A DNA stretch of 64,000 bases from Yuukianura sp. NJ FZ-2021 (Eukaryota), in assembly GCA_046563655.1 (NCBI GenBank), contig CM102287.1:1178001-1242000 (forward strand), written 5' to 3'. The notes under the pieces were generated by a model that saw only the letters and a list, made by a program, of their open reading frames with translations, had not been told where the DNA came from and did not search any database. Of this stretch, positions 100 through 45,027 are shown piece after piece. Both the position numbers and the translations under genes were made by a program. Every line of letters starts with the position of its first letter. Position 1 is the stretch's first letter.

Positions 100-790
100 C
101 TAGGGACGCAACGTAGAGTATGTTGCTGTCTCGTATCTCATGTCGTGTTCAAGGATTAGTAGTTATTAACATTTCAAGTAGAGACGCAGCGTACAGTAAG
201 CAGTCGTCTCCACAATTAGGTCGCAGTCAGGCGTAAATCTACAGATTGTTCAATGAATTGAAGTTTTTAGTAAGTCTTTTGGATTTCAATGAATGTTTTT
301 CGAAAAGTTATCAAGTAAATTAAAAATTTTGTACTAGTCCATGAGTGAACGACAAGAATCAGAAACTACTCAGTCACGTATTCCTAGAACTAGGTCTGAA
401 AGAGCTGAACATAGAGCCAGAGTCAGAGAACAGAAGACACAAAGTCGTATTGAAAGTCAAACTCAAAGTCAGATTCAAGGTCAAAGTTCAAAGTCAAGTA
501 GAGTGCTTATCTTGTCTTATAATTTCAAATGTTGAACATAAAGTTGCGAAGTCAGAGACGCTACGTAGAATAGGTTTATCTCATTTCATGCACATGTTTA
601 AGTTAATTGAGTTCAAATTTGAGACGCAGCGTACAGTAAGCCGACGTCTCTACAGTTAGATTGAAGTAAGGCAGAAATCTAAAGGTTGTTAAGTCTCCAT
701 TAAGTTAGTACCATGAGTTTACGAATTGAATGTAGACTGCAGTTAGTTATTAAGACACAAGAGACGCAGCGTAGATTAACTCCTACCCTC
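100..790. repeat. Degenerate dispersed repeat region flanking the satellite
   Basis: The motif GAGACGCAGCGTA recurs at ~181, 621 and 761, with variants at ~103 and ~555. The block at ~100-260 resembles ~550-690. A short AGTCAAA-type microrepeat lies at ~455-497. Confidence 0.5.
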
Positions 791-19400: not shown

Positions 19401-21211
19401 TCCTGTAGCCCTTTTTATGAGGATTTCAAAAATGTAATTTACTTTCTGTTCATTCTCACACTTGCATGTACATTCTCACGAATTTAAGTCGTTTTGCGTC
19501 AAAATGGTGCTCGGCATTCCCCTGGGTGCCGTATTCCAACCCGTGATAAAATTCGAGGCGGAGCGATTTATCCCGACTTTTAAGTCCGCCCTATCCAGAT
19601 TTAATGGCGATCTATCCACACCAATGAAACTTGGGGTTCTGCAGTACGTTTCATAAGGATTTCAGAAAACTAACTCATTGTCACCCGGCATCGTTCCGCG
19701 CGGAGGTTTTTCGAATGTTTTGTTTTGAAACAAATTTTCATAAATAAAAGCAACGAGATGAGGGACGACACAGCAAGTGAAAGTGGGTTCCTGTAGCACT
19801 TTTTATGAGGATTTCAAAAATATAATTTACTTTCTGTTCATTCTCACATTTGCATGTTCATTCTCACAAATTTAAGTCGTTTTGCGTCAAAATGGTGCTC
19901 GGCATTCCCCTGGGTGCCGTATTCCAACCCCACATAAAATTCGAGGCGGAGCGATTTATCCCGACTTTTAAGTCCGCCCTATCCAGATTTGTATGTATGT
20001 ATGTTTTTCAGGAGGGGGCTAAGCCGAGGCTTAACTCGCACCGATGAGGCGCACTTAGACGGGCCTATTTCAGTAACTCCATTAGGGACATACTGTTTGA
20101 GTTCGGGCTGCCTTTAACCGGTTATCATTTCTTTCACTGGGTATTCAGCAGTCTGAGAGGGGAAGGATACCCACAAACTCCTCCACCTCGAGCTTCTGGC
20201 TTTTCGTATTTAAATTATCTTATTTCTCATAAGACAGACGAATTGCCTCCGCTCATCAACATATTATAATCTTGCGAGGGACTGCTGCCTTGCATACTAT
20301 TACTTGACGCGGCAGGACGACGGATCGAATCCATCTCCCTGCGTTGACTTTTTCATAGGCTTAGCATACAATCTCAGGTAGACAGTGGAAAAGGATGGGA
20401 GCCTTAACCACTGAGCTACTCGCCCGCCTCCTATCCAGATTTAATGGCGATCTATCCACACCAATGAAACTTGGGGTCCTGCAGTACGTTTCATAAGGAT
20501 TTCAGAAAACTAACTCATTTTCACCCGGCATCGTTCCGCGCGGAGGTTTTTCGAATGTTCTGTTTTGAAACAAATTTTCATAAATAAAAGTAACGAGATG
20601 AGGGACGGTACAGCAAGTGAAAGTGGGTTCCTGTAGCACTTTTTATGAGGATTTCAAAAATGTTGTTGCCTTTTACCCAGCATCGTTCCGGAATGCATTT
20701 CTTTTGAATTCTCTGCTTTGAAACATGAATTTTCATAAATAAAGGTAACAAGATGAGGGACGATACAGCAAGTGAAAGTGGGTTCCTGTAGCACTTTTTA
20801 TGAGGATTTCAAAAATGTTGTTGCCTTTTACCCAGCATCGTTCCGGAATGCATTTCTTTTGAATTCTCTGCTTTGAAACATGAATTTTCATAAATAAAGG
20901 TAACAAGATGAGGGACGACACAGCAAGTGAAAGTGGGTTCCTGTAGCACTTTTTATGAGGATTTCAAAAATGTTGTTGCCTTTTACCCAGCATCGTTCCG
21001 GAATGCATTTCTTTTGAATTCTCTGCTTTGAAACATGAATTTTCATAAATAAAGGTAACAAGATGAGGGACGACACAGCAAGTGAAAGTGGGTTCCTGTA
21101 GCCCTTTTTATGAGGATTTCAAAAATATAATTTACTTTCTGTTCATTCTCACATTTGCATGTTCATTCTCACAAATTTAAGTCGTTTTGCGTCAAAATGG
21201 TGCTCGGCATT
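1426..21211 (+). repeat. Satellite DNA array, left block (388-bp unit plus a variable number of 155-bp monomers), interrupted by a SINE
   Basis: Unit spacings of 388, 543, 698 and 853 bp are read from repeated landmarks (e.g. 1875, 2418, 2806, 3504). The copies are nearly identical. Confidence 0.98.
19991..20429 (-). mobile_element. tRNA-derived SINE inserted in the satellite
   Basis: 13-bp TSD CCTATCCAGATTT at 19978-19990 and 20430-20442. On the minus strand there is an A box TAGCTCAGTGG (20418-20408), a B-box-like GGATTCGATCC (20332-20322) and a 3' (CATA)n tail at 19991-20004. Confidence 0.88.
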
Positions 21212-21346
21212 TGATGAGTGAGCTAAGCCACTTCTACCCCGCTTAAGTCTCAAGTCACCCCAGGTATTGTGTGTCGAATTGACTTTTTGACAGAGAATGT
21301 AATACATCTTTATGTCATTCAGCCGTTTCTGGTGTGATGTCAAAAG
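21212..21346 (+). repeat. Left terminal inverted repeat of the Polinton
   Basis: 21212-21283 is the reverse complement of 36312-36376 except for a 7-bp extra TCAAGTC. Imperfect similarity continues to about 135 bp. Confidence 0.93.
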
Positions 21347-21374
21347 GAAAATCACCGCGTCTCCATTTAAACAT

Positions 21375-21692
21375 AAAAAAAGTTAGGTTCGTACTCTATT
21401 TAAACTCTTCGCATAATCAAGCATGCTTCTCTCACGGCTGCCTCAACTTGTAGTCCGCCGCTCTCTAAGTCATTGTATCATTCCACCTTTTCCAGAATGG
21501 TGGAAATGGAACAATGACTTAGAGAGCCGCGGACTACAAGTTGAGGCAACCGTGAGAGAAGAATGCTTGACTATACGAAGAGTTTAAATAGAGTACGAAC
21601 CTAACTTTTTTAATTTTTTTACTGCTCCTGGGAATCGACCCCAGGCTTCCTCGATTTGATTCCATCACCCTATCGTTTGCGCTAATGCACTT
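21375..21692 (-). ncRNA. Candidate Pol III transcript: degenerate tRNA-like head followed by a long hairpin
   Basis: Minus-strand A-box-like TAGCGCAAACG starts at 21684. A T-arm CCTGGG-GTCGATT-CCCAGG contains a B-box-like motif starting at 21641. An inverted repeat spans 21376-21611. The first T-run of 4 or more on this strand is T7 at 21381-21375. Transcription is inferred. Confidence 0.5.
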
Positions 21693-21927
21693 ACCATTGT
21701 TTAATTCAAAGTGAATTTGATATATACTCCGAAATAATCAAAATGTTATTATAAAACAAGGGTTTAAACATAAACGTTTTTAACATTAGAAACTGTTTAC
21801 ATCTTAAAAGCTCAGCTTAAATTCCTTTCCGGTTAGTCAATTGTGCACTTAATAGTGATATTAATCATAGCTCCAAATTTAGCTCTCAGTTATCTTTCTT
21901 AAGTCAAACTGAAAACATCTATCTACA

Positions 21928-22406
21928 ATGCGGCAGAGGTACGTGTTTAATCACGAACATTACTACAACACTTTGAGGGACCAAATTGGCAATGGAATGC
22001 CTGTGTTTCATGGGGTACGTCAAAGAGGGGTGGGATTGGTTACATCCTAGGCGGGATTGCCAAGTACGCATTGCCAATCATCATGAAGTGGATTTTGCCT
22101 CGCGCAAAGGAAGCTGCAGTTAAAACTGTGAGTGGCATTGCGGGAGGACGCCAGTCGGTAAAGAAAGCTTTGAAAGAAAACAGCGTTGGATTTTTGAAGA
22201 ACGTCGGCTCGGATCTTTTGAATTCAGTAGTGGGAAGTCAAACCGGAAACGGTGTTCGAAATAAACAGAAGCGGACGTACACGAAGAGGAAACCCGCGAA
22301 ACTAAGGAAGCAAGTCTCTGCAAACAAGGTTAAGAAATCCAAATCGAAAGTCTCAAAAAACGAAAAGCGAAACCAAATCCAACAAAGACGAAGAGAACCA
22401 AATTAG
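21928..22406 (+). CDS. Polinton small virion protein with amphipathic Gly-rich helix and basic tail (cupiennin/pVI-like); 1-nt frameshift near 22028
   Basis: The ATG at 21928 gives MRQRYVFNHEHYYNTLRDQIGNGMPVFHGVRQRG. The next frame continues GIGYILGGIAKYALP into the 22071 ORF. The QxGxG...QRGxGIG pattern resembles a conserved Maverick gene (recognised from memory). Confidence 0.65.
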
Positions 22407-22419
22407 ATATTTTTGCATA

Positions 22420-23721
22420 ATGTCTTTGCTGCATTCCCGGTCTAAACCGGCTATTCGTGGAGAAGTCGACCTATTTTCAATCCCAGCAACAGATACGACG
22501 TGTGACTACAGTATGTACGAAGAGTATCAGCCAGTTGTGAACGTTCAGGACGCTTCAAACAAAATCGAATTTAAGATTCCTGGGAATAGTAACCATTACC
22601 TGGATTTGACAGACAGCTTCCTGCGGATCAAGCTAAAAGTGACGCAGAAGACCGGAGATAACCTAGGAACGGATTCCACAGTTGGAACTGTGAATTTATT
22701 TATGCATGCCCTCTTCTCACAACTGGACATATATTTTAATGAAAAACTTGTGTCCACAAGCAATAATGGCTACTCATATCGGGCGTACATAGAAACATTG
22801 CTTTGCTACGGAAAAGACTACAAAACCTCCCAGGGTGGATGTGCTTTGTACTATGAAGACACAGTTGGTGGAATTGCAGACTCGACAAACCTAGGATGGG
22901 AGAAACGAAAAAGCTACATCAACGAATCGAAAGACTTGGAGCTAATCGACAAATTGAGATTTAACCTAGCTAATCAACATCGATACATATTGAATGACGT
23001 GAACGTTCGCATTTGTCTCACACGATCTTCCGATGCATTTGCCCTTTTTTCAAAGAAGAAGGGTGAGGATGGAGTAATCAAGTTCTTATCGGCAACATAC
23101 TACATCCGAAAACAACTGCCTTTTCCTAGCATTATATTGGCTCATCAGAGACTTTTAGAAAAAGGCGAAATTGCTCAATACCCATTTAAGTCCACTGAAG
23201 TGAAATACTTTACCATTGCTCAAGGAAATTCGTCTGCCCTCGAAGAAAACCTTTTTGCAAATACTGTGCCAAGTCGTATCATAATTGGATTTGTGGATAG
23301 CTTGGCGTTCAACGGAGATTTCAATTCAAATCCGTTTCGTTTCCACAATTACAACATTAAGTCCATTTCGATTTCAGTCAACAATGTGTCTATACCAATT
23401 AGACCGTTGTCCTTGGACTTTCCAAATAACGAATGGCTTTTGGCATACTATCTTTTATTTACGAGCACAGGAATAGCTGGGCACGATGTTGGACTGTCTT
23501 TTGGGCGAGACGACTACAAAGAGAGCAATGCCCTATTTACATTTGATATTCTTCAACCCACTGGGAACGAGGCACTCCTTCATTTGGAAAAATCTGGGAG
23601 CGTGAAAATTGAAGTTCAGTTTAGCAGGGCGCTAGAAAAATCAGTGCACTGTGTTATTCTGTCTGAACAACAAGGGGTTTTGGAGATTGACAAGTACCGA
23701 CAAGCAGTTGTGGCACAATGA
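22420..23721 (+). CDS. Polinton major capsid protein (double jelly-roll, PY/hexon-like)
   Basis: Intact 433-aa ORF. Motifs EVDLFSIP, YLDLTDS, LFSQLDIYFN, YSYRAYIETLL and FNGDFNSNPFRF match the Maverick major capsid pattern, and the gene lies next to the protease. Confidence 0.85.
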   Translation: MSLLHSRSKPAIRGEVDLFSIPATDTTCDYSMYEEYQPVVNVQDASNKIEFKIPGNSNHYLDLTDSFLRIKLKVTQKTGDNLGTDSTVGTVNLFMHALFSQLDIYFNEKLVSTSNNGYSYRAYIETLLCYGKDYKTSQGGCALYYEDTVGGIADSTNLGWEKRKSYINESKDLELIDKLRFNLANQHRYILNDVNVRICLTRSSDAFALFSKKKGEDGVIKFLSATYYIRKQLPFPSIILAHQRLLEKGEIAQYPFKSTEVKYFTIAQGNSSALEENLFANTVPSRIIIGFVDSLAFNGDFNSNPFRFHNYNIKSISISVNNVSIPIRPLSLDFPNNEWLLAYYLLFTSTGIAGHDVGLSFGRDDYKESNALFTFDILQPTGNEALLHLEKSGSVKIEVQFSRALEKSVHCVILSEQQGVLEIDKYRQAVVAQ

Positions 23722-24268
23722 ATACCACCGAAATCATGGAGATACTGGATAGGAGCATCAACGGATCATACCAAACTGCAGTTCTACCGTCCGACAAATT
23801 AAACGTTATTACTTCGGATCAGTTCGCAGTCGTAGCAAATTCCCAAACTTCCAAGGAACCAGGAATGCATTGGATCGGCATGTTCAAAAAACGAGGAGGT
23901 AGGGAAGTTGAATTCTTCGACAGCTGTGCAATGCCGATTCACTTTTACAATCCTAGCTTTGTAAATTTTCTTTACTCCAAATCCGACGTCATAAGGATGA
24001 GCAGCCTTAGAGTTCAGCCGGAGCATAGCGATGCTTGTGGACAGTTCGCGCTATACTACTTGATACACAGAGTCAAGGGAGAATCATTCGAAAAATTCTG
24101 AGCAGGTTCGACGAATTTGATCTAAATGTAAACGACAACATTGTTAGAGACTTCGCGGCAATTAACTTACATTACGATAATACATGCTTCAGGGGTGACT
24201 CCCAAAACTTAGAAGTAACCAGAATCATTCAGTGTTGTGAGATTTTAGAAGTTCTACTCAACATGTAA
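23718..24268 (+). CDS. Adenain-like (C5 family) cysteine protease; 1-nt frameshift in an A-run at ~24091-24095
   Basis: His (PGMHW), Asp (EFFDS), Gln and Cys (SDACGQF) catalytic pattern. The C-terminus ILSRFDEFDLNVNDNIVRDF continues in another frame. Confidence 0.88.
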
Positions 24269-24335
24269 GTTTCGGTTCCTACAAGTGTATATATTTAACG
24301 TGACCAAATTGTACATTCATTCTAATCTTATTAAA

Positions 24336-25265
24336 ATGAAATCTCAAGTTGCGAAAGCATACAAGAACATCGGAAGTTCTACTTATTTGGGGGGCAAGAA
24401 ACATTTAAGTAAGTTAAACGGTATTTCTGATTCTACAGCATTGAAATTCTTACAAACTCAAGACTCATACACGCGCCATAAGAGTCGGAGGTGCAAATTT
24501 CGCAGGAGACGGGTAACATCACCAGGTATAAACTACCTATGGCAGGCTGATATTGTTTTTTTGCCAAAGTACACTGAAGAAAACGATGGCTATTCTTGTC
24601 TTTTAACCGCAATTGATGTCCTGTCAAAGTATGCATTTGCTGTGCCAATGAAATCAAAGAAAACTAGCGAAGTTATTCAAGCATTTAAGCGGATCATCTC
24701 TTCAGGGAAAGGAAAACCTGTAACACTAGAATGCGATCAAGGTTTAGAATTTTGGTCAGCTACATTCCAGAAGTGGGCAAAGTCTCTTGGCATATTGATG
24801 TACCATAACTTTTCAGACTTTGGTTCATCCGTTATTGAACGGTTTAACCGAACAATATGCACAGCTATCTCAAGACATCTTACTGAAAGTGGTCAAGCGA
24901 GATACATTGAAGCCCTGCCTTTTCTTATAAAGACTTATAACAGTAAAATACATTCGCGAACGAAAGTGGCGCCATGCGACGTTAACAAATACAATGAAAT
25001 GGACGTATGGTTGGAATCTTATAAGGACTTGTATTCAAAACCTAAATCAAAAGCTACTCTTAAACTGTACGACCGCGTTCGCCTAGATAAAACGAAACAC
25101 ATATTTGGCAAAGGTTATTGGCCTGCTTTTACGAGCGAAATTTTCGAAGTTTGTGAAGTCATCAATTCCATTCCTGTGACGTATCGTGTCAGGGATCTCT
25201 CTGGTGAGCAAATTTCTGGCATCTATTACAGTCAAGACCTCAGCAAGATAAGTTTAAAAGTGTAA
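24336..25265 (+). CDS. Retroviral-like (rve) DDE integrase of the Polinton
   Basis: WQADIVFL, LECDQGLEF and SVIERFNRTI give the D-D-E triad. YNSKIHSRTKVAP is also present. The first ATG is at 24336. Confidence 0.95.
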   Translation: MKSQVAKAYKNIGSSTYLGGKKHLSKLNGISDSTALKFLQTQDSYTRHKSRRCKFRRRRVTSPGINYLWQADIVFLPKYTEENDGYSCLLTAIDVLSKYAFAVPMKSKKTSEVIQAFKRIISSGKGKPVTLECDQGLEFWSATFQKWAKSLGILMYHNFSDFGSSVIERFNRTICTAISRHLTESGQARYIEALPFLIKTYNSKIHSRTKVAPCDVNKYNEMDVWLESYKDLYSKPKSKATLKLYDRVRLDKTKHIFGKGYWPAFTSEIFEVCEVINSIPVTYRVRDLSGEQISGIYYSQDLSKISLKV

Positions 25266-25266
25266 A

Positions 25267-26013
25267 ATGGGATTCTATATTACATTACCGTCGAACGGCT
25301 CACGTTATTTTTCTGACAACCGAACCAGTAACTACAGGATTAAACTTCCATCCAAAATAAAACTTGAGCCTTCCTTATACGAAGTCGGGCTTACTGAGTT
25401 GACTTATGTGTGCTCCATAAAAACCCTAACCGGAGCTGAGAAAGACAACCTCATTGAGTATAATGCGGCGAAGACTGCCGGGAAAATAGTGCTTCCTTTA
25501 CTTCATTACAGTACCGTGGAGCATTTAGTTCACATAATCAACGCATCTTTTATAAAGCACAGCGTCCCTTCCAACTTGAAGTACTATGAAACAAAGTGTC
25601 GTGTTATCCTGGAAGTAGAAGCTGGATTTAGTATCGAAATAAGTGAGAAACTCTCCTACATTTTGGGATTTAATGGTACGCTTGAATTCAATTCAAATCA
25701 GCAAAATACTTACTTGATAGCCGATTCTCCACCGGATATACTCGGTGGGCGATATCACATGTTTCTATACTGTGACATAATAGAGTCTCAAATCGTTGGA
25801 TCCTCTCTTGTGCCTCTGCTTCGTATGGTAAACATAATTGGAAACGAAGGACAAGCAGTCACTCAAACTTTTGCTCATCCGTTTTATCTGCCGATTTCAA
25901 GGAGCGAGTTTGACATCATCTCTATTGTACTGTGTGACGAATTTGGGGAGGAATTACAAATTGACAAAGGTCAAGTGACTTTAACTCTACATTTTAAGAA
26001 GATATCAACCTAA
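25267..26013 (+). CDS. Polinton minor capsid protein (PX/penton-like)
   Basis: Intact 248-aa ORF. The N-terminal FYITLPSN...N...LP..I.L...YEVGL.E and C-terminal FLYCDIIESQIVG...PLLR...TLHF patterns are typical of this Maverick gene. Confidence 0.75.
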   Translation: MGFYITLPSNGSRYFSDNRTSNYRIKLPSKIKLEPSLYEVGLTELTYVCSIKTLTGAEKDNLIEYNAAKTAGKIVLPLLHYSTVEHLVHIINASFIKHSVPSNLKYYETKCRVILEVEAGFSIEISEKLSYILGFNGTLEFNSNQQNTYLIADSPPDILGGRYHMFLYCDIIESQIVGSSLVPLLRMVNIIGNEGQAVTQTFAHPFYLPISRSEFDIISIVLCDEFGEELQIDKGQVTLTLHFKKIST

Positions 26014-26740
26014 TGGAGAACCATACGTACGATTTCGATCAAATTCAACTCAAACATCCATTCACATTTATTGTTGCAGGCGGTACGATGTCTGGAAAAA
26101 CAACATTTGTTTGCAAGATTATTCAAAACCTCGACATGATGGTGTCACCTAGAATCGATGACGTAATTGTATTCTATAAGGTATATCAAAGCGGCTATGA
26201 CGTCATGAAGTCAATGGACCATAGAGTTAGATGCATGGAGGGATTAAAATTGGACGAAGTCTACGCTAATAATACATTGCTAGTCATCGATGACCAAATG
26301 GCAGATTCATTAAAAGACAAATCTGTCCAAGAACTCTTCACTTGCGGTGTTCATCATAGGTAAGGCAAAAATCACTTTGCAAATGCACTACCTCGATAAA
26401 TTTGCATAGAATTGACAAAACGTTTTTGAATTCCAGGTCAATATCCGTCATCTTCCTTTCTCAAAATTTGCTGCCGCAAGGAAAATATGCCAGGGATATT
26501 CGTCTCAACACACATTACATGACGATTTGCAAGACCCCCTCATTTCCATCACAAGTGATGTACCTCAGTAGACAACTCAATCCAAGGAAGCCGAGTGCAA
26601 TTTTAAACGCTTACGAGGAGGCAACTCGCCAGCCGTATTCATACTTGTTCTTAAATTTACACCCTAGTTGCCACGATAATTTACGAATACAGTCAGGAAT
26701 TCTTCCAAAGGAAGAACATATTATTTACTTACCAAGTTAA
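26013..26740 (+). CDS. FtsK/HerA-type (A32-like) packaging ATPase with one intron (26360-26436)
   Basis: Walker A GGTMSGKT and Walker B LLVIDD. Removing the 77-bp GTAAG...TTCCAG intron restores HHR-SISVIFLSQNL in frame. Confidence 0.93.
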
Positions 26741-26754
26741 GTGTTTCTTTTACA

Positions 26755-27101
26755 ATGACAAACCGTTTAGTTAGAAACAAAACGTTCCTCGAAGAAGTTA
26801 AAAAGTGTAAAGCTCCGCGCCGAAAAAGTTAATAAAAAAGGCTTCAAAAGACAACATTGAAGCATTGTCCGAAATTGCTCTAAACACGTTAATTGGTAAT
26901 GTGCCATTAACTAAACAACACAAACATAAACTCAAACGGCACAGGAGTTGTATCAGGAATCTTGCAAAGAAGTTCTCTATTAAAAAGAAGAAGGAATTCT
27001 TAATACAAAAAGGTGGGTTTCTTCCACTGTTGGTGACACCAGCTCTGTCGATACTTGGCGGTCTTGCAGCAAACGCATTAACTCACCTTGTGGGTTTATA
27101 A
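26755..27101 (+). CDS. Small basic Polinton protein (putative core/virion protein); 1-nt frameshift in an A-run at ~26823-26827
   Basis: The ATG at 26755 (MTNRLVRNKTFLEEVKKC) joins LIKKASKDNIEALSEIALNTLIGNVPL...QKGGFLPLL. The protein is Lys-rich with a hydrophobic C-terminus. Confidence 0.7.
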
Positions 27102-27953
27102 TGTCCAAAAAAATGAAACTGATACCGCATCTGGAGTACGAAAAACTTATTGCCATTCAACGAAGCTCCTCAGCTTTTACATAAATCTGCATCAGTTCAA
27201 CTATTCCAAAGGAAGCAAGCAGCAGCAACAAACATTCTAAAATGGAATTCTATTTCCGATGACATCAAATTAGCCTTATTCAATAGTATGGTAAAGGGAC
27301 TGCACGCAAACTTTTCGGCTCTAATACACACTCCACTTCAAGTTGAAGTTTCTAAACCGGGAAAGCTTGTTCCATCACCCAAAAGTACAAAGACCAACCA
27401 CGAAGAGAATATAAAACGCGATGCAGGAACGACCGTAGACCAGGCTTTGTACAACACTCACCTAGCTAAGTTCCTTCCAAAAAAGTACCAGCTACCTGGC
27501 ATGAAAATAATGCACGTTCTTTCTACGTCTGCATTTAATGACATTTCCTGGGATGAGTCCGGCCAAGTTTCGTATAAGGGTGTACCAAGGAATGGTGCAA
27601 ATATTATTGAACTCTTGGCATACGTCCTAAAGCCTCCGGCGAAGGTCATTCCACCAAAGGGAATTCGTACATTTATTTACATTTTAAAGAAAGTGCATTT
27701 ACAAAAGGAGTTGCTTGGAATTCATATTCGGAACAAGTTAAATCTGAGTACGGTAGCACTACTTGCCCAAAATACTCCAGCCACTAACGAATCGCTAGAA
27801 GAGGGCGAGGAAGAGGAGGAGGAACACGACGACGAAGAGGAGGAGGGAGACGGAATGGACGATTACGAAGCGGATGCTCCCACTAGTGGTAATACATCTG
27901 ATGAGCAATATCAAACGCCAGTTGCCACAGCCTCTGCCTGGAGCATCTTCTAA
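27101..27953 (+). CDS. Polinton protein of unknown function with acidic tail; probable frameshift near 27140-27150
   Basis: The ATG at 27101 overlaps the upstream stop (TAATG) and gives MSKKMKLIP. The main 267-aa ORF is in another frame and contains ISWDESGQVSYKG...NIIELL. Confidence 0.65.
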
Positions 27954-27984
27954 TTAGTCAGTTATTGGAGTTAATAGTACAAAC

Positions 27985-28669
27985 ATGTCAGAACTAGTTG
28001 CAAAAGTAGACGTAATCAACATGCCTCTAGTAGTATTAACGAACAACGGTCCGGATTTCGAACAGTACTCAACCACTGAAAGTAGGCTAGCCAGCTTCGA
28101 TTCCTCTACTAAGGATTGCTTCCTCCTGCTGCAACACTAGCAAACGCAGGATTCTTCTTCACAGAGTTTGAGGATGCTGTAATTTGTTTTTACTGTGGGC
28201 TGTGTCTGAGTTCTTGGAGTCAACACGATTCACCATGGTTGGAACACCGAATTCATTCTCCAAACTGTGCATATCTCATTCTAAAGCACCCAGTCACAAA
28301 CGTAAGCTACAAAATGTTTGGAAGCAAAATTATGACAGTAAATATATATTTATGATAAATTTTGAAAAATGTAGGTTTCGTCAACAACGGATCTTTGTGA
28401 GATGGATTCCGGAAAGTGTATAGAGACAGGTAAAGGAATCATTAAAGTGCAAGTTTGAACTTATGTGTGAACTCATAATTATTTTTTCTTATATAGAATT
28501 GAACAATTTGAAGTCTATTATCAGGTGCAAGATTTGCATGATTCGCCAAGTCTCCTATATGTACGCTCCTTGCTGTCATTTGGCAACATGTTTGGAATGC
28601 TGTACCACCCAATCAATATGCCCCATATGTCGTTCCGAAATAACGCTGATAATTAAGGTCTTCGTTTAA
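27985..28669 (+). CDS. Inhibitor of apoptosis (BIR + RING) with two introns (28302-28374, 28430-28496) and a 1-nt frameshift at ~28112
   Basis: BIR motif RLASF...LANAGFFF...DAVICFYC...W...DSPWLEH...SPNC. C3HC4 RING CKIC...PCCHLATCLEC...CPICR. The GT-AG introns splice in frame, and AATAAA lies at 28688. Confidence 0.88.
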
Positions 28670-28702
28670 AATACGTCACATATAAGTAATAAAGCATTAG
28701 AC

Positions 28703-31700
28703 TTAGTTTTTATTAATCCTGTAATGCCCGTACGGTAAGGTTGTAATGCCGTCGTTTAAAATGTAGCGTTTGGAATCAAATGCATGTAGTGCAGCTTTAG
28801 TTGTTCTGATATTGTAAATTTTATGCTTGTACGACCGCATTGATTTCAGAGTGCACGCTAGAATTTTTTGGTCTAATAAAACTTTCTCCAGCATTTCAAA
28901 TGATATTGACTTTTGCTGAACTCTTTGCGGGATTCCCTTCATGGCAGTTTTTTTGAAAGAAGCCGCATGGTAATCTTCACCTACAAAGCAGTAGGACTTG
29001 GGGGCGAGTCCCACAAACTTGGTTAGTATTCGTCCCTTCACGTCGTCTTTCATTTTTCCAGTGACTCCAGCATTCGCCATTGAATAAAGCGGGTGTGATT
29101 TTGGCAAGTTGCTGGTGTCAAATAGTTCTAAGTCTTCTTCGAGGTCTTTGTATAGGTCTGTGGTGCAAATTGAGTATGCCAAGCTGTCAGTATCAGTCAT
29201 GAGCAGCGTCGCATTTTGGCCCCATTTGGTCTTGACGTAGTCATAGTGGAAACGTGCCATATGTAATTTGCTTAACTCTAAAACGCAGAATCCTGTGTAA
29301 ATTGCTTTGTTAAGGGTGACGCATGACTTCTGCATTCTAAAGCAGGCCAGATTGTCACCCAAAATATCATGCGACAAAAATTGGAATTTTGACAACAATC
29401 TGGAAGCGGTTTGACGGTTGTTCACTACTCTGATGTTCATGCGCTTCCTGACAGATTCCATTCCTTTTCCAAATACAGCATTGACACATAACTTGTAGAA
29501 CATCCTATCAAATTCATTTTTGGCATTGCGCCTTTGGGAGCTGTTGAACTCAACGTATGTTTTAAGCCATGGTTTTTGCCGGAATGCCAAAATTCTGTGA
29601 ATCTTCTGAATCAAAAGTCCACGATTCACGTAGAATTGTAAGTTTGCCACATGACAGATGTAATTCTTTCGGTGCTGGAAATGGCACACAAGCTTTTCTT
29701 GCAATTCCATGTAATTGATTGGAAGACAGTCAAGCAACTTTCTTTGGAAGCTGCTAAAATTCTCTGAAGACACAGTTGTCTTTTCACAAGCCAGTGGATA
29801 GCATTGGTGTGAGTCGTGAAGTTCTTCTGTATAGTTCAAAAGGTTAAGAAAATCATGAAAAATTAACAAAAGTAGACAGTAATAGTTCATGAAAGTACAA
29901 TACCAGGATAATGAAGATCTGCTTCTATAATGTACCCAATGTCGTCGTCCAAGTGAAAGTCATCAATATTGAATTCTGCCACCAATGCTAAAATTAAAGC
30001 AGATGAGTATATTAAAATGTAAAGTTACTCAACATTTCACTTGCTTAACGCTACCTTGATTTAAAAAATAAAATTGTCAACTGGAAGCCTGCTCTCCATT
30101 GCCTTTCCGTACAGGTTAACCATGTCCCACAAAGCAATATACATCTGGTTTGCATCTCCAGGCTTTCCACTATAGTCCTTCATGTATTTGTTGTGTGCCT
30201 CTGCATAACGATGTGAGATTTGGGAAATTCCTCCTGAACAATGGTTTAGGAGTTAGTCAGTGTTAAATTAAACATTATTAGAGGAAATACTCAAATACCT
30301 CTCATTCCTTTCTCCAGAAAAATATACATCTCAATGTCAGTTATGAGTTCCAGCTTTACGTTTGACATTTTTAAAGCAGCATCCCACGCCAGCCCAGGTA
30401 GCGAAAAGTAGTGAGCCGGGTCAAGTCCAAAATTCTTCAATGCCATTTTTCGAAACTCTTCAAACACGCAAGCGAGTAACAACGCATCGGTTAGTAGGTA
30501 AAGATCATGGTATTCCCCTAAGGATTTAAGACCGAACGTCTTGAAAATATGCAGAGCGTATTCATAGTCCGCATCGGTAATGTGGCAACTAGTAAGTGTG
30601 TTGTAGAACTTTGGCTTCGCAGGTAAATTTTCTTCATCAAAACGTTGCCAAGAGTCGATGTAGTCGTAAGGGTATACACCTTTTCTTGTAAGCAGTTCAT
30701 ATTTGTTTCCAAACACCTGCTTCATGATTGCAAATTTATCTTCTCCTTGCTCCTTCAAATTGCTGACGAGTTCACTTAATGAGGAATTGAGAAATTGAAG
30801 GCTATCTATAAACCGCAAGGAGTCAACTGCCACCGACATGTATTTCTCCGTGTTAGTTGGAATTACGGATATTTTCCTAGCACTTATGTCATTCAGTCCT
30901 TTGATGATCAAGTGATGATCATATCCTTGAAAGTTGTGGATCTGCGTGAATATAAAAAATTTTGAATTTTAATTTAATTGAAACAATTAATGAAAACCTT
31001 TAATGAAACAATTACAACGCATATTGCAAACGTATGTTGTTCTAACCACAACAGGTAAAATTTCCTCTTGTTGGAATTGTAAATTACATCTCTTGTGAGC
31101 GGCCCCTCGAAATGTACCTAATAGTAATTCGTTTAATTTTTCAATAAGATAACAACCTTTACCTTTGAATTTATCAGCGTTTTTATTTTGTTACCCGTCA
31201 AATGACAATGATCTCTGCACTTGTCTCCATAAAATTCAAATGCTCCACCACAAATGTGACAACTCTCAGCATTCTGAAATATCTCCTCCTCTCCATGTTT
31301 CATTTTAATGGGTACTTTCAGTTTGTATATCTCCATGACACTGCTCGCAATTTTTAAACAATCTTCAAGAAAAATCTTGATGCTGTCCTTTCCTCTGTAA
31401 ACACGGTAGGAGATCAACTCGCCGGTATTTTTGATTAAAGCATATGGGAATCCGGAGGGGATATGACGTTTCTCTTTAGTGATGGACGACTCATTTGAAG
31501 AATCTTGAATGGGTTTCAATATTGATTCCAAATCAGCGTACATAACATAGCCTGCTTCCATTTTGTTTGAATAGTTTTCGAAACACATCACTGGTGGACT
31601 ACCATTTTCGACTTTCGGCATCTTCACCTTTTGAAAAACAAACTTTTCACACTCAGCTTTATGCCTGAGAAGTAAGCACATCTTCTCGCATTTGCTTTCA

Positions 31701-32894
31701 CGACAGGTTTTTGAACACTGCTTAATTCTTTGTAAACAATTGTAAGTAACGTCGTTTGCAGTTTTGTTTTCCCAACAATCTGTTCATGTTCCGAATTCCA
31801 ATGAAATGCCAATTGTTTCCAGTTTTGTCACGCACAAGCATTAAATTTGCTGTTTGAGAAGTTCTGTAGTTTTTCTCAGAAATTCGTACCGGCAAAATTC
31901 CATCAAAGCGAGAATATTCAAAAACATTCACTGCAACGTCGTTTTTTTCTTCGAATTTGCATATTTGTTTCAATGAAACCGGATATTCAATGCAGTCAAA
32001 GTCATGTAGATGAGCGTACTGCTGATAAGTTGAGGCACGCGAAGTCTCCTTATCAGGACGGTACAAGGAACTGAGCACAGCCCACTTAAAACAGCGATTT
32101 CCTCTCGTCATAATATTTACAGTCGCCTTTTTGGATTCCAAACATTTTGGAAGTCGCTTCCACTGACCTCCAGTGAATGGCTTGAATTTCCCAACTCTGA
32201 TGTCTGATCCGCGGATTTTTGACAACTGCCACCCCGAACCATAAACTTCAAAGATGTTAATTGACTGGTCAATTTTTGATACACACATTTTCATAAACCG
32301 CACAAGACTTTGCTTGGGGTTCAACACGTTAAGCATGTTCGAGTTTATCATTTTCTCTTGGTATTCAAAAATTTCGTTTCCATCTTTCGATTGACATAAA
32401 TAGCGTTTAAACTGTACCTTCACAGAAAGTTGGCACTTGATAGTTTTCAACTGGACCAGACATTCTTTGATAATGTTTTCGATTTGATTTCCAAATTTCA
32501 GAAAATACAAATTGAGGCAGGGGACCGACTTTTTCATCAGATGACGGTATGTCCGGACGTACCCTTGAAATGCCTGAATTTTTTTGAAAGGAAGTATTCC
32601 AGTTTCACTGTTCTTAGAAATTGACCTCCCAATTTGGATCTTTCGACTTATAGCCTTTGCAATTTGAGAATGCAGAACTCTTGAATGCACAACTGCAGAA
32701 TGGTTTTCTAGACGTAAATGTGAGTTAAATGTTTTTCGACAAAGAACGCACCGATAATTTGGAATTTCACGTACACTTTTGTTTCTTGCACACTTCCTCC
32801 GGCACTTAGAAACGTGTTTAAGGTAAGCAAGCTTTCGAAGTTTCTGTTTGCCACAAACACCACAAACAGAAGAGCTTGGTTGGATGTGATCCAT
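28703..32894 (-). CDS. Protein-primed family B DNA polymerase with N-terminal zinc-finger-like motifs, five introns and two frameshifts (~31745, ~30070)
   Basis: Motifs YADLES, DHCHLTG-TFRGAAH, IHNFQGYD, RFIDSLQF, WDMVNLYG, KLCVNAVFGK and MTDTDS. GT-AG introns lie at 31118-31194, 30942-31046, 30234-30298, 29988-30054 and 29827-29903. Confidence 0.93.
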
Positions 32895-33581
32895 GTCTTA
32901 AAACAAGTTTTGAATTAATCAGCAGATGAATTTAGATAAGTACTCCATCTTTCAAATTACATGTGTTTCAAGTTCTAGAGTCTTTCAACAATTGTCCAAA
33001 AGGTGGCGCTGATAGTCACTTTGTAGCAATATTGCAGAGCAAAATTTTGAAGTGTATTTTAGAATGAACAAGTTTGAGATGCCAAATACAAGGCTTCAAA
33101 AAGTAGATGAATAAAGGAAAAAACGCTGCGTTTAAGCCTTCCCAGAATGAAATTTTTCCTTAAACTAGGGTACTTAAGTCCAACTGTATTCCCTTAAGTA
33201 CCTAAATGAATTTGGCCAGTTTCTGTTTGACTTCTATGAACTCGTTTGATCCTGAGATTGAAAGCGAACATTAAGTATTATCGATGTGTCAGGTAAAACA
33301 AAGTCCAAAATCACTCAATTTTTGTTAAATTGCAGTTTTCAAAACTAAAAATTTGCTGAATCCTCAATTCTCACGAATTGAAGGACAATGGGAGATTCCG
33401 TGTCATATTGTTGCTAAGGCATAAACGTTAGATACTTTAATTTGTCATGATGAAGGCTTGCCGCTCCCTAAGTTTCAGTCATCGTTCCAACTCAGTTACA
33501 GAAACAACTCCTAAGCAGCGAACGAGTTGCATCAATCACCACCATCGTTCCATTTTGCAAAGTTATCTGTGTCAACTAACT

Positions 33582-35093
33582 ATGATCCAAAGGTTGAAAA
33601 GGGGTAAGCCCTCATTTTACAATTGTTTCATTGTTTCAATTGTTGCAATAGCTATTTTGTAAATATTCAAATGTGCTGTTCATTTTGAAAAACTTACATT
33701 TAATTTACTTTTTTGATTAATTTGTTCTTAGCGAACACCGTGGACCTAGAGGAAGAAGTTCCATCCAGAACCGAAAAAATGGTAGCCGAAATGAGTCCAA
33801 ATTCGAATGACCTAAGGAATGCAGAGTTAGCCACTTCAAGGGTTAACCCCTTAGCTCGTTCTCAGCAGTATCAGGAGTCCGTAAAGGAAGCTATGCGAAA
33901 GAAAGCATCAGTGGAGCGTGAGGTAAGATTTACAACTCTTATTTAAAAAGTTGCGCAAAATTCCATAATTAACTTTTGATTTATTATTTAAGGAATCTGA
34001 TCCGGAATTTTTGCTGGACGATGATAAACTCAACAATGATGAAGATGACGATGAAGAAGAAGAAGAAGAAGAAGAAGAAGATAGCTTTGAAGAGGATGAT
34101 AGTGAAGAGAGCGAAAAGGGTATGGACGAGGAAGAAGTCAAACTCATCGCCATCGAAAAAAAGATTGCGCCAAAGAAGCCAACATTTGTCAAGGTAAGAA
34201 CAAAATAAAGACGAGGTTGTATAAAATAACTATCTTTGTTTTGTCCTTATTAGAATTTGACTCAAGAGCTTGCTGCCGCTGCGCCAAAGACACAGATGAT
34301 CGTCAAGGTTGCACAACCAAACAAACGGCGCAACCAAATTGCTGCTAAATCATCTACAAAGCAGCGACTTGGAAAGGTATAAAGATCATGTTTCGAATTG
34401 AAGTTATATTTACAAGCAACTATCGTATAATTTAAAATATGTTATTTAAAACTTTACAGGTTACATATGGAATTGAATCAGCAACTAAACCGGACGAAAA
34501 TACAACAACCGTTTCCAAGGCAATCTATCTCCGACCACAAGGACGAACCGCCAAAAAAGCAGCAAAACGCCCGATTGGGATGCGTTCGAAACCGGCGGCA
34601 AGTCACATTTAAACGGAATGACGGTTCAAAGTAAATTGATTGATTCTTAACTTTTAGAAGGCTCCAACCCATTCGGTAGCAGAAACCGAGGATTCAGAGG
34701 GTTCGATGACATACGAGCCAGCCAAGAAGAAGAAGAAAGATTCCTCCAAAGTAAGAACAAAATTACCTACTACTGGAAATTTTTTCAACTACTTAAGGAC
34801 TGCAACTTAACAATTATTATTATAATTATTTTTCACAGGAGCTGGTACTGGATTTCGCTCCGTCGGATCATGGTGGTGGCGCAGACAAGGACGTCAGGGA
34901 AGGCGACGTCCATATCGGCCAGGGAATACATGTGAAATGGCACAAGTTCAAAGGGAAGTACTATATTATGGTACGTCACTTTGCCAACGGGACTGCCGAC
35001 GGAAGACGTGGCATCAACATCGATATGCAGTATCTGCCCAATTTGAAAAAAGCTGTGGACATGGCTTACAAATGTTACGTTGACAGCTCTTAA
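33582..35093 (+). CDS. Multi-exon acidic/basic protein with C-terminal PC4 (Sub1)-like ssDNA-binding domain; 5' end uncertain
   Basis: Introns at 33604-33731, 33923-33992, 34194-34253, 34377-34459, 34598-34657 (GC-AG) and 34751-34838 give one open frame. The last exon reads VHIGQGIHVKWHKFKGKYYIMVRHF...RRGINIDMQYLPNL. The protein has a poly-D/E tract and an NLS-like PAKKKKK, and AATAAA lies at 35131. Confidence 0.72.
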
Positions 35094-35099
35094 AACGTT

Positions 35100-36086
35100 A
35101 AGCTTTTTCAAGGCTCCATCTGACACTTTGAATAAATTCAATCTTTAAAGTGCTTAATATATTTAGAAACATACAATGGTTGTGTTTATTTTGGGCATTT
35201 TTTCTTCAATTGGTTGGTTTCTGAATTAATTCTAAATCTTTCCTGGCTGTTCTTCTTGTCCCGTTTAAAGTCTCTTTCAAACCTGCGCTTCAAACGTATT
35301 AGTCCCCTCGTCTTTTCCGGCTTCCTCTGTGAATTGAAAAAATAATAAAAGGAAAATTTGTAATTACGGATCTTCTCAGAACAAAATAAAATCTCACAAT
35401 TTCAATCTGTTGTAAAACCCATTTCTGCATATGATGAGGAGTCCCCGTTTGCCGGAACATATTTGTTTTTTTCTAATAAATAATATATAAATAAATTTTA
35501 GAACCATAACAGCTAATAATAACGTAACATAAGACTGTTGTAGACATTTTCTAGAAAGCCATGCACCTTTCCACATTTCGATTTCCAAATGTTTGGTGCG
35601 CATGCGCAAATTTGAAAGTGGAGACGTACTTTTTAGACAAGAGACAAAACTTCGTTCATTTTTGTACTTGAACATATTTAATGCTTTGTGCGCAAGCGCA
35701 AATTTTGTTCAAATACGCATGAAAGCATGTCCCTACAAATAAACGTACAGGTTTTTTTGCAAAACCCCGCGCACGTTTCTACTTCTATTTTTGATGTACA
35801 TGACAAATCCGGTTTGACCAAAAACAAGACTGAATGTAAGAGACATGAAGCGTATTACCTTGGTACCTCCATTTTGTTTTTTCTCTGCACCACGACCTTT
35901 GGGTTGGTTTTGTTTGTTCACACAAAACTAAAATAAATCCAATAGAATACAAATAAATTAGATGAGAACTAAAATCAATAAAAGATTTTCAATTAATTTT
36001 TTATTAAATCTTACGTGTTGTACACCTGCTGCTTCTCTGGCTTTCCTATCAGCTTTGATTTGTCGAGGTGATTTCCCTTTTGACAT
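35100..36086 (-). CDS. Possible small spliced basic protein near the right end of the Polinton
   Basis: MSKGKSPRQIKADRKAREAAGVQH|gtaag splices in frame to FCVNKQNQPKGRGAEKKQNGGTK|gtaat. A further Lys/Arg-rich exon-like segment follows an acceptor near 35328. The middle exons are unresolved. Confidence 0.35.
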
Positions 36087-36238
36087 TTTGTAAGATTGAA
36101 TGTTGCGAATTCTGAACTCTAAAACTAATTCCCTAAACTCTAATTCTAAACTAAACAAAGACACAGACTGCTATATGTGCACTTATAGACAAAGTGCATT
36201 TTTTTTCCCTCAGCCAGAAGGAACAAAGTAGTACAATG

Positions 36239-36376
36239 TCTTTTCGTCATCACATCAGAAACGGCTGAATGACATGAAGATCTATTACATTCTCTGCCGA
36301 AAAGACATCGTGTCAATTCGACACACAATACCTGGGGTGACTTAAGCGGGGTAGAAGTGGCTTAGCTCACTCATCA
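36239..36376 (-). repeat. Right terminal inverted repeat of the Polinton
   Basis: Ends ...CTTAGCTCACTCATCA, the reverse complement of the left end. Confidence 0.93.
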
Positions 36377-39300
36377 GGCATTCCCCTGGGTGCCGTATTC
36401 CAACCCCAGATAAAATTCGAGGCGGAGCGATTTATCCCGACTTTTAAGTCCGCCCTATCCAGATTTAATGGCGATCTATCCACACCAATGAAACTTGGGG
36501 TCCTGCAGTACGTTTCATAAGGATTTCAGCAAACTAACTCATTTTCACCCGGCATCGTTCCGCGCGGAGGTTTTTCGAATGTTCTGTTTTGAAACAAATT
36601 TTCATAAATAAAAGTAACGAGATGAGGGACGACACAGCAAGTGAAAGTGGGTTCCTGTAGCACTTTTTATGAGGATTTCAAATATGTTGTTGCCTTTTAC
36701 CCAGCATCGTTCCGGAATGCATTTCTTTTGAATTCTCTGCTTTGAAACATGAATTTTCATAAATATAGGTAACAAGATGAGGGACGACACAGCAAGTGAA
36801 AGTGGGTTCCTGTAGCACTTTTTATGAGGATTTCAAAAATGTAGTTGACTTTTACCCAGCATCGTTCCGGAATGCATTTCTTTTGAATTCTCTGCTTTGA
36901 AACATGAATTTTCATAAATAAAGGTAACAAGATGAGGGACGACACAGCAAGTGAAAGTGGGTTCCTGTAGCACTTTTTATGAGGATTTCAAAAATGTAGT
37001 TGACTTTTACCCAGCATCGTTCCGGAATGCATTTCTTTTGAATTCTCTGTTTTGAAACATGAATTTTCATAAATAAAGGTAACAAGATGAGGGACGATAC
37101 AGCAAGTGAAAGTGGGTTCCTGTAGCACTTTTTATGAGGATTTCAAAAATGTTGTTGCCTTTTACCCAGCATCGTTCCGGAATGCATTTCTTTTGAATTC
37201 TCTGTTTTGAAACATGAATTTTCATAAATATAGGTAACAAGATGAGGGACGATACAGCAAGTGAAAGTGGGTTCCTGTAGCCCTTTTGATGAGGATTTCA
37301 AAAATATAATTTACTTTCTGTTCATTCTCACATTTGCATGTTCATTCTCACAAATTTAAGTCGTTTTGCGTCAAAATGGTGCTCGGCATTCCCCTGGGTG
37401 CCGTATTCCAACCCCAGACAAAATTCGAGGCGGAGCGATTTATCCCGACTTTTAAGTCCGCCCTATCCAGATTTAATGGCGATCTATCCACACCAATGAA
37501 ACTTGGGGTCCTGCAGTACGTTTCATAAGGATTTCAGAAAACTAACTCATTTTCACCCGGCATCGTTCCGCGCGGAGGTTTTTCGAATGTTCTGTTTTGA
37601 AACAAATTTTCATAAATAAAAGTGACGAGATGAGGGACGATACAGCAAGTGAAAGTGGGTTCCTGTAGCACTTTTTATGAGGATTTCAAAAATGTTGTTG
37701 CCTTTTACCCAGCATCGTTCCGGAATGCATTTCTTTTGAATTCTCTGCTTTGAAACATGAATTTTCATAAATAAAGGTAACAAGATGAGGGACGACACAG
37801 CAAGTGAAAGTGGGTTCCTGTAGCCCTTTTTATGAGGATTTCAAAAATATAATTTACTTTCTGTTCATTCTCACATTTGCATGTTCATTCTCACAAATTT
37901 AAGTCGTTTTGCGTCAAAATGGTGCTCGGCATTCCCCTGGGTGCCGTATTCCAACCCCAGATAAAATTCGAGGCGGAGCGATTTATCCCGACTTTTAAGT
38001 CCGCCCTATCCAGATTTAATGGCGATCTATCCACACCAATGAAACTTGGGGTCCTGCAGTACGTTTCATAAGGATTTCAGCAAACTAACTCATTTTCACC
38101 CGGCATCGTTCCGCGCGGAGGTTTTTCGAATGTTCTGTTTTGAAACAAATTTTCATAAATAAAAGTAACGAGATGAGGGACGACACAGCAAGTGAAAGTG
38201 GGTTCCTGTAGCACTTTTTATGAGGATTTCAAATATGTTGTTGCCTTTTACCCAGCATCGTTCCGGAATGCATTTCTTTTGAATTCTCTGCTTTGAAACA
38301 TGAATTTTCATAAATATAGGTAACAAGATGAGGGACGACACAGCAAGTGAAAGTGGGTTCCTGTAGCACTTTTTATGAGGATTTCAAAAATGTAGTTGAC
38401 TTTTACCCAGCATCGTTCCGGAATGCATTTCTTTTGAATTCTCTGCTTTGAAACATGAATTTTCATAAATAAAGGTAACAAGATGAGGGACGACACAGCA
38501 AGTGAAAGTGGGTTCCTGTAGCACTTTTTATGAGGATTTCAAAAATGTAGTTGACTTTTACCCAGCATCGTTCCGGAATGCATTTCTTTTGAATTCTCTG
38601 TTTTGAAACATGAATTTTCATAAATAAAGGTAACAAGATGAGGGACGATACAGCAAGTGAAAGTGGGTTCCTGTAGCACTTTTTATGAGGATTTCAAAAA
38701 TGTTGTTGCCTTTTACCCAGCATCGTTCCGGAATGCATTTCTTTTGAATTCTCTGTTTTGAAACATGAATTTTCATAAATATAGGTAACAAGATGAGGGA
38801 CGATACAGCAAGTGAAAGTGGGTTCCTGTAGCCCTTTTGATGAGGATTTCAAAAATATAATTTACTTTCTGTTCATTCTCACATTTGCATGTTCATTCTC
38901 ACAAATTTAAGTCGTTTTGCGTCAAAATGGTGCTCGGCATTCCCCTGGGTGCCGTATTCCAACCCCAGACAAAATTCGAGGCGGAGCGATTTATCCCGAC
39001 TTTTAAGTCCGCCCTATCCAGATTTAATGGCGATCTATCCACACCAATGAAACTTGGGGTCCTGCAGTACGTTTCATAAGGATTTCAGAAAACTAACTCA
39101 TTTTCACCCGGCATCGTTCCGCGCGGAGGTTTTTCGAATGTTCTGTTTTGAAACAAATTTTCATAAATAAAAGTGACGAGATGAGGGACGATACAGCAAG
39201 TGAAAGTGGGTTCCTGTAGCACTTTTTATGAGGATTTCAAAAATGTTGTTGCCTTTTACCCAGCATCGTTCCGGAATGCATTTCTTTTGAATTCTCTGCT

Positions 39301-44954: not shown

Positions 44955-45027
44955 GAACCGGTAGCTCAATTGGTAGAGAGCATCTTCCCGGATTGAAGAG
45001 GTGTGGGTTCGAGTCCCACTCGGTTCC
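44955..45027 (+). ncRNA. tRNA-like cloverleaf with A/B boxes in the 5' LTR
   Basis: Stems GAACCGG/TCGGTTC, GCTC/GAGC, TCTTC/GAAGA and GTGGG/CCCAC, with T-loop TTCGAGT. A T-run follows. Confidence 0.8.

Follow-up and report, generated by a model that had tools for sequence, protein, structure and literature searches.

A predicted RNA polymerase III hairpin-RNA locus beside the left terminus of a Polinton, and tRNA-like units at the same site in related elements

Virus-encoded RNA polymerase III (Pol III) RNAs, among them the VA RNAs, EBERs, TMERs and BLV miRNAs, are known from a few vertebrate viruses. VA RNAs combine an internal A/B-box Pol III promoter with a terminal stem and a 3′ U tail, and often come as one or two tandem genes; in TMERs, also Pol III products, a tRNA-like part that folds as a tRNA and is cut by tRNase Z is joined to a pre-miRNA hairpin. 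Vault RNAs and similar Pol III RNAs are about 90-140 nt long and have internal A/B boxes and a 5′/3′ panhandle. Promoters of the tRNA type are a hallmark of SINE heads, whereas the hpRNA loci described so far are host genes transcribed by Pol II. Polintons share polymerase, protease and capsid ancestry with adenoviruses. Our literature search, with subscription journals and Repbase-type annotations outside its scope, found in the portions of the sources open to it no work that connects Pol III RNAs, VA RNAs or tRNA-like genes to either Polintons or adintoviruses; publications holding both Polinton and Pol III terms were, by their titles, general transposon reviews. Here, we describe a locus just inside the left end of a Polinton that, judged from its sequence, is probably a Pol III hairpin-RNA locus. 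Clearer hairpin units with an A box, a B box and a T-run occupy the same site in related (sister) Polintons, which makes a Pol III RNA locus in the window (the whole 64-kb stretch of DNA that was analysed) credible, and this Polinton group may make its own Pol III RNAs, as adenoviruses do.

The carrier is a 15.2-kb Polinton (21212-36376) whose terminal inverted repeats (TIRs) each span about 145 bp; the 6-bp target-site duplication GGCATT flanks it on both sides (Table 1). Domain searches of its genes recover an rve integrase (4.3e-16) and an A32-like ATPase (Pox_A32, 6.1e-5), while matches to DNA_pol_B_2 (pPolB) are weak, below the cut-off (0.0014 and 0.0029), and scattered across several ORFs. 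The polymerase region (within 28703-32897) is split into four minus-strand ORFs, 28703-29959, 30291-30968, 31133-31783 and 31722-32897, the last of which has a weak, sub-threshold match to a dsRNA-binding JAZ-type zinc finger (E 0.0022). A 433-aa protein, which we read as the probable major capsid protein, has 167 homologues; some sources label these F54H12.2-like, and Pfam PF21738 is annotated on 4 of the 120 homologues listed (P0012, P0014, P0017 and P0021). The empty site is preserved as well: contigs of the source organism join 21211 straight to the sequence beyond the right end of the Polinton. Such contigs stand at very high depth in the source-organism runs and are present also in a second organism. 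Outside the Polinton, the stretches of the window that we sampled (for example 20559-21126 and 36583-37317) consist of a satellite that has a 155-bp unit and, as a higher-order variant, one of 388 bp; the Polinton is an insertion in one of its repeats. Two identical tRNA-Ser(GGA) genes (44955-45027 and 45256-45328) lie within this satellite, in a 301-bp tandem duplication (44840-45385).

Table 1. Features of the Polinton's left end, and of its termini, in window coordinates.
Feature	Position	Strand	Basis or remark
Left target-site duplication, GGCATT	21206..21211	none	read from the sequence; empty-site contigs run from 21211 into the right flank
Left TIR	21212..21355	+	aligned to the reverse complement of the right end; core 21280-21348 vs 36239-36307, 87%
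12-nt direct repeat TTTAAACATAAA, left copy	21366..21377	+	overlaps outer edge of hairpin
Hairpin arm (3′ arm of minus-strand RNA)	21369..21482	-	ends in T7 at 21381-21375
Apical region	21483..21504	-	CCACC/GGTGG pairs further, leaving an 11-nt loop; AAAA on minus, TTTT on plus strand
Hairpin arm (5′ arm of minus-strand RNA)	21505..21618	-	inverted-repeat search and folding
A-rich spacer between head and hairpin	21606..21620	-	A7 TT A6 on minus strand; length varies between copies
Degenerate tRNA-derived head	21621..21692	-	A-box-like 21684-21674; B-box-like 21641-21631; T-arm 21644-21628
12-nt direct repeat TTTAAACATAAA, right copy	21763..21774	+	exact match to left copy
First plus-strand gene of the capsid module, start	21923..22406	+	related Polintons are similar in nucleotide sequence from here on
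Probable major capsid protein gene, 433 aa	22420..23721	+	query for retrieving related Polintons
Right TIR	36232..36376	-	end-to-end alignment
Right target-site duplication, GGCATT	36377..36382	none	read from the sequence

The locus was noticed in a first-pass annotation, made from the letters alone, as a VA-RNA-like unit: an inverted repeat just inside the left TIR, with an 11-nt loop, behind a tRNA-like promoter. The inverted repeat is real, with 114-nt arms that are 92% complementary and lie 22 nt apart, and folding gives the 11-nt loop. Since the left TIR aligns over about 21212-21355, the hairpin begins 14 nt to the inside of it. Folding, which the annotation had suggested as a check, gives -212.2 kcal/mol for the minus strand (z -23.5) and -191.9 for the plus strand, and the hairpin exceeds chance by a wide margin. 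Which strand is meant to be read is less clear from the hairpin itself. Past 21700, the minus strand meets no stretch of at least four T until, as had been claimed, the T7 formed by the last bases of the second arm, and the plus strand meets a TTTT in the hairpin loop; as an argument about strand, the observation is weak, because an internal T-run is also missing in 17.6% of shuffles of the head plus palindrome, which is not significant. The same holds for the claimed G-U bias. Three of the nine arm mismatches do form G-U pairs on the minus strand only (21412/21575, 21416/21571 and 21438/21549), and one does so on the plus strand only (21478/21509), a difference of 3 vs 1 that is not significant. 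A search for targets of the arms within the 64-kb window found none.

Upstream of the hairpin on the minus strand, a motif scan and folding agree with the earlier description of a degenerate tRNA-like head. The A-box-like and B-box-like 11-mers, counted from 21684 to 21641, are 43 nt apart on one strand, inside the 30-60 nt of a type 2 Pol III promoter. Scored against consensus motifs, the B box fits 10 of the 11 positions of GGTTCGANTCC and the A box is weak, fitting 8 of the 11 positions of TRGCNNAGTGG. The T-arm is well formed (a 5-bp stem and a 7-nt loop) and is all that folds; the head lacks an acceptor stem and has neither its own terminal stem nor its own terminator. ARAGORN calls no tRNA at 21621-21692, and the Rfam tRNA model is absent over 701 nt, both at its gathering score and at E up to 10. 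We therefore rejected the head as a canonical tRNA gene, and it is best described as tRNA-derived, not a tRNA. In shuffled sequence, an A+B pair of the same stringency arises about 2.3 times per 461 kb, both strands counted; a pair at so short a distance from the hairpin (some hundred bases) is thus rare, and it weighs by its location there and not by its own score. The head faces outward, and the first plus-strand gene begins about 230 nt to its right. A TATATAT word (21719-21727, minus strand) precedes, by about 25-30 nt, the start that the A box would predict; the region is AT-rich, and such a word may arise there by chance. The direct repeat TTTAAACATAAA brackets the hairpin, the head and a further 70 nt; when the two flanking zones, chosen after the fact, are shuffled, 2 of 1000 trials yield a repeat of at least 12 nt. 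This repeat hints at insertion of the whole module, and it could be either an insertion scar or part of the unit.

The unit is present in other copies of the same Polinton family. We aligned contigs at 80% likeness from three DNA runs of the source organism and one run of the second organism. At least three contig records bridge the junction between hairpin and head with at least 31 nt on each side (X1 record 2, X2 record 10 and X3 record 19), and one of these, X2 record 10, is a diverged copy that crosses the junction over 21576-21715 with 12 differences and 8 gaps. At least five diverged contigs lead from the head into the Polinton interior (X1 records 3 and 4, X2 record 11, X3 record 20 and X4 record 31). 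The last of these comes from the second organism, where the right arm occurs too (records 29 and 30); among the records listed for that organism, no single one spans hairpin and head by the 31-nt rule. Thus the expectation that sister copies would share the unit is borne out for the head in several copies and for the hairpin-head junction in at least one diverged copy. Summed contig depth over hairpin and head, a rough measure and not a copy number, is about that of the neighbouring interior (21700-21900) and several-fold below that of the TIR, and we found no contig joints that skip the module. The copies vary most towards the apex of the right arm, where at least 10 differences fall between 21514 and 21542, and other copies have insertions in the spacer at 21611-21613. 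Among the differences listed, the covered part of the left arm has no partner changes, and the B box and T-arm have no variant, which is not significant. Two contigs carry the sequence from 21362 onward beside unrelated upstream sequence, yet share the 12-mer.

Sister Polintons offer a wider comparison. An alignment of 32 of the 167 capsid homologues served to retrieve 80 metagenome loci, 10 of which have a capsid identity of at least 59%; six of these include enough upstream DNA (L002, L003, L004, L006, L008 and L010). Nucleotide similarity between the left end in the window and the 80 loci is confined to the coding part, from 21923 onward, with none over the window's unit. Five of the six informative loci carry one or two units of about 95-150 nt at 600-830 nt upstream of the capsid gene: two on the minus strand in L002 and in L004, two on the plus strand in L010, one on each strand in L003 and one on the plus strand in L006. 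The sixth, L008, has no unit; there a polymerase gene lies directly upstream and the gene order differs. In six of the nine sister units, the two boxes are clear and spaced 42-47 nt apart, as in TGGCATAGTGG ... GGATCAATTCC and TAGCATAGTGG ... GGTTCGATTCT; in the other three (the second unit of L004 and both units of L003) they are weak. The second L004 unit and the plus-strand L003 unit were found by eye only. In all nine, a terminal stem of 12-64 bp joins the 5′ segment that holds the A box to the 3′ segment, and its base lies 11-15 nt before the A box, the place at which a promoter of the tRNA type would start transcription. A run of T4-T8 comes after the stem, adjoining it in most cases and set off by 6-14 nt in both L003 units; within the L006 unit, a TTTT occurs 23 nt past the A box.

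Several lines of evidence suggest that these sister units are more than chance matches and that they may be shaped as RNA. A strict scan (A box with at most one mismatch, B box with at most one mismatch 40-47 nt away, first TTTT 60-110 nt on) gives five matches, all at the site of the sister units, against a mean of 0.38 and a maximum of 4 in 100 shuffles of 461 kb. In an alignment of four units, 90% of cells in the terminal stem are paired, compared with 35-48% when the partner strand is slid, and 7 of the 21 pairs have changed on both sides. RNAalifold, run on six units, recovered only five pairs because the 3′ strands were out of register, and the structure was then set by hand on the four units. 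In 9 of 10 structures the strand with the boxes and T-run folds better than its complement, and that strand has 38 G-U pairs against 13 on the other (35 against 12 when the window's hairpin is left out), an asymmetry expected from selection on RNA rather than DNA. The units fold at z -3.8 to -15. They belong to no family that we could name: ARAGORN found no tRNA in the sister loci (58 of the 80 scanned), and in L001-L012 no unit matches any Rfam family at E up to 5, whether tRNA, VA or vault. Across the 80 loci, R1 (a covariance model described below) and the strict box scans found no similar units elsewhere. Compared in pairs, the units are 55-67% identical and show no clear orthology, the two L002 units being most alike; a block inversion that would make the L002 and L010 units orthologous is conceivable at this level of identity.

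These and other Polintons contain further repeats, which we record here as separate observations. In L004, the core covariance model R2 has a weak match (435-498, minus strand; 14.7 bits, E 2.6) that lies further outward than the two units and could be a third, decayed one. L006 has, outward of its tRNA-like unit, a second hairpin (2-107; 52-nt arms, 77%), which the T7/A7 inside its arms makes incompatible with transcription by Pol III. In L003 (1000-1260) and L010 (100-230), short sub-repeats, tandem or inverted, occur outward of the units and may be subterminal repeats of these elements. In distant Polintons, with capsid identity of about 37-50%, long hairpins occur at other places in the element: in L053 (10472-10719 and 10940-11133), L013 (9168-9249), L068 (9254-9368) and L037 (6713-7055), and none of these four was seen to have a tRNA-like partner; the L053 hairpin adjoins TTAGGG-like repeats. 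Viral contigs searched with capsid protein patterns and with a 29-nt hairpin pattern gave no match. An A-box...B-box pattern matched at least 120 stretches in viral contigs, mostly long ones, and we rejected these as relatives: R1 scores 16.6-21.9 bits on 80 fetched loci, against 80-95 for its own source units, and they appear to be ordinary tRNA-like genes.

How the window's unit relates to the sister units can be judged by sequence models and by position, and the two differ in what they yield. We built covariance models of the full unit (R1) and of its core (R2) from four and six sequences, respectively, with a short calibration that makes the E-values rough. Over 510 kb, R1 finds L003 (E 6e-4) and L004 (E 0.28), and neither the window's head nor its hairpin at E up to 10; R2 over the same 510 kb matches the head weakly (11.9 bits, E 9). 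A local R1 search of 501 nt scores the head at 7.5 bits (E 0.16) and the inner hairpin at 10.7 bits, equally on both strands. R1 matches in the satellite (13.3 bits, 8 copies) were set aside as noise, and inspection together with R1 and R2 searches found no hairpin or tRNA-like unit inside the right TIR. Among the sisters themselves, boxes are clear in six of nine units and the stem covaries in the four aligned; the window's head shows only a weak R1/R2 match. By position the agreement is closer. The window's A box lies 736 nt before the start of the capsid gene and the sister A boxes lie 616-824 nt before theirs; in L002 and L004, the gene-proximal unit stands where the window has its head, and the distal unit where it has its hairpin. 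At its base (AAGTT... / ...AACTT plus T-run), the stem of the window's hairpin is like those of the sister units, over few bases only, and stems of 58-64 bp in L006 and L003 indicate that stem growth occurs in this family. From position and stem base, we infer that the window's unit is a fusion of two units. In such a fusion, the proximal unit would have kept its promoter and lost its stem and terminator, and the distal unit would have kept its stem base and terminator, lost its boxes and grown a long stem.

We propose, tentatively and as a possibility that falls a little short of likely, that the locus is a composite Pol III gene, this Polinton family's version of a small RNA gene feature found across the clade. 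The feature would consist of one or two small RNA genes with a tRNA-type internal Pol III promoter, placed between the left TIR and the capsid genes. Each sister gene would be self-contained: an A box 11-15 nt past the stem base, a B box about 43 nt further on, a 3′ end that pairs with the 5′ end, and a T-run. In the window, the proximal unit would be left as a promoter head, with B box and T-arm intact and the A box weak, and the place of the distal unit would be taken by the hairpin with its 114-bp arms ending in T7. We infer transcription, a single RNA, its processing and its function as follows. TFIIIC would bind the head, and Pol III would initiate near 21696 on the minus strand, cross the A-rich spacer and both arms, and terminate at T7. 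The resulting composite transcript of about 320 nt, which we consider plausible from the layout of the DNA, would be near-perfect dsRNA over its 3′ two-thirds and end in a 3′ U tail. Such an RNA could be a substrate of Dicer or of a dsRNA sensor, acting as a decoy or as a source of small RNAs for the element.

The features on which this proposal is built also admit a different history, in which the head is a dead relic of an ancestral tRNA-like RNA gene and the hairpin an unrelated inverted duplication, the two being neighbours by accident. The hairpin would then act, if at all, as DNA or within a Pol II transcript: as a cruciform near the terminus, as a barrier between transcription of the flank and of the element, or as a trigger of host silencing. 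The weak A box, the lack of a stem and terminator belonging to the head, its marginal match to the sister models and the non-significant strand evidence within the window's hairpin all suit this account. So do the second hairpin of L006, which is incompatible with Pol III and so places a hairpin of another kind at this end of a related element, and the long hairpins of distant Polintons (L013, L053 and L068), for which no tRNA-like partner was seen. We consider a relic head unlikely all the same, since the hairpin occupies the exact place of the sisters' second unit, with a stem base and T-run that resemble theirs, and since head, spacer and hairpin are still together in a diverged copy; the B box and T-arm, without a listed variant between copies, lean the same way without reaching significance. 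Still further from what we would expect, and improbable in our estimate, is that the promoter resemblance is due to chance and that the locus is a neutral palindrome beside random sequence. Lone T-arm-like motifs (24 observed, 24-40 in shuffles) and loose A+B pairs (98 observed, 95-130 in shuffles) are indeed no commoner than expected, and we rejected both as evidence. A stricter A+B pair, however, is expected about 0.08 times per Polinton, and here one is found no more than 3 nt from the hairpin, with the offset from the capsid gene that the five strict sister matches also have.

Hairpin and head, together with the sister units, might instead be tRNA-derived mobile elements of the SINE or foldback-MITE type, a host repeat load landing repeatedly in the only large non-coding stretch that these Polintons have. 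The direct repeat around the module would fit such an origin, as would the 55-67% identity between units without clear orthologous pairs and the two contigs in which the left edge of the hairpin stands beside unrelated sequence upstream of 21362. Orientation also varies among the sister loci (minus in L002 and L004, plus in L010 and L006, both in L003), a pattern that mobile insertions would produce too. The first-pass annotation had itself set its reading against a dispersed SINE or MITE: the depth over hairpin and head, roughly measured, is like that of the interior and not far higher, which sides with that reading, whereas the 12-nt direct repeat bracketing the module does not. The repeat is in turn a poor match for what an insertion should leave. 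The 12-mer is present in both contigs whose upstream context differs and therefore was not duplicated at each insertion, and it would put the 5′ end about 70 nt before the A box, a misfit with a retrocopy derived from a Pol III transcript. We found no contig that joins across the module; in the sister units, body, tail and visible flanking duplications are all missing; and five of six loci have one or two units at one fixed site, with none alike elsewhere in the 80 loci. Taken with these observations, an origin as mobile elements seems to us quite unlikely, less so than pure chance and more so than a relic head.

Returning to the composite Pol III gene, we can sketch what it might do. A bolder form of the proposal, which we regard as somewhat doubtful, is that this Polinton clade encodes Pol III hairpin RNAs at a fixed site by the left TIR as a counterpart of the VA RNAs, and that here two tandem genes have fused to give an RNA of about 320 nt whose 114-bp dsRNA would saturate or redirect host RNAi or dsRNA sensing, or would make small RNAs against targets in the host or in rival elements. 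If Polintons do carry such genes, then counter-defence by non-coding RNA would be much older and more widespread in the adenovirus-Polinton lineage than supposed, or would have arisen there again independently. The sister units supply a simple signature with which to search for it: a long terminal stem that reaches an A box after 11-15 nt, followed by a B box and a T-run.

Known systems resemble the window's unit and the sister units in different respects. The TMERs of murid gammaherpesvirus 68 share with the window's unit the order of a tRNA-like promoter, a hairpin and a T-run. They differ in that the window's head has no acceptor stem and that its hairpin is 250 nt long (114-nt arms) where that of a TMER is about 60 nt. 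With the acceptor stem missing and a hairpin four times too long, the unit falls outside the TMER type; processing by tRNase Z as in herpesvirus tRNA-miRNA units is doubtful for a head of this kind. The hairpin by itself is closer to the hpRNA loci that yield endo-siRNAs, being a long, near-perfect inverted repeat of the Dicer-substrate type, and departs from them in its implied Pol III promoter, in being borne by a Polinton and in having no target within the window. With tRNA-derived SINEs and foldback MITEs, the unit shares a tRNA-derived head with A and B boxes and long inverted arms; unlike them, it has no body or tail and no convincing target-site duplication at its own ends, and it is not over-represented relative to the Polinton interior.

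The sister units have counterparts of their own. Vault RNAs are like them in size (about 90-140 nt), in internal A and B boxes and in the 5′/3′ panhandle, and unlike them in that the sister units have no Rfam vault match and are encoded by a mobile element at a fixed site. The comparison with VA RNAs, the label under which the locus was first noticed, divides between the window and its sisters. No Rfam VA RNA match was found in the window's unit at E up to 10 or in L001-L012 at E up to 5, and the design differs too: a VA RNA fits a terminal stem, a central domain and an apical stem into about 160 nt, and the window's unit is about 320 nt long with its promoter outside a 114-bp stem. A stem of that length would be expected to activate, not block, a PKR-like sensor, and the hosts of this Polinton clade may lack PKR. 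The label fares better at the level of architecture. Adenovirus VA RNAs I and II and the sister units are alike in a carrier with pPolB and double-jelly-roll capsid proteins, in internal A and B boxes, in paired ends with a 3′ U tail and in often occurring as one or two tandem genes.
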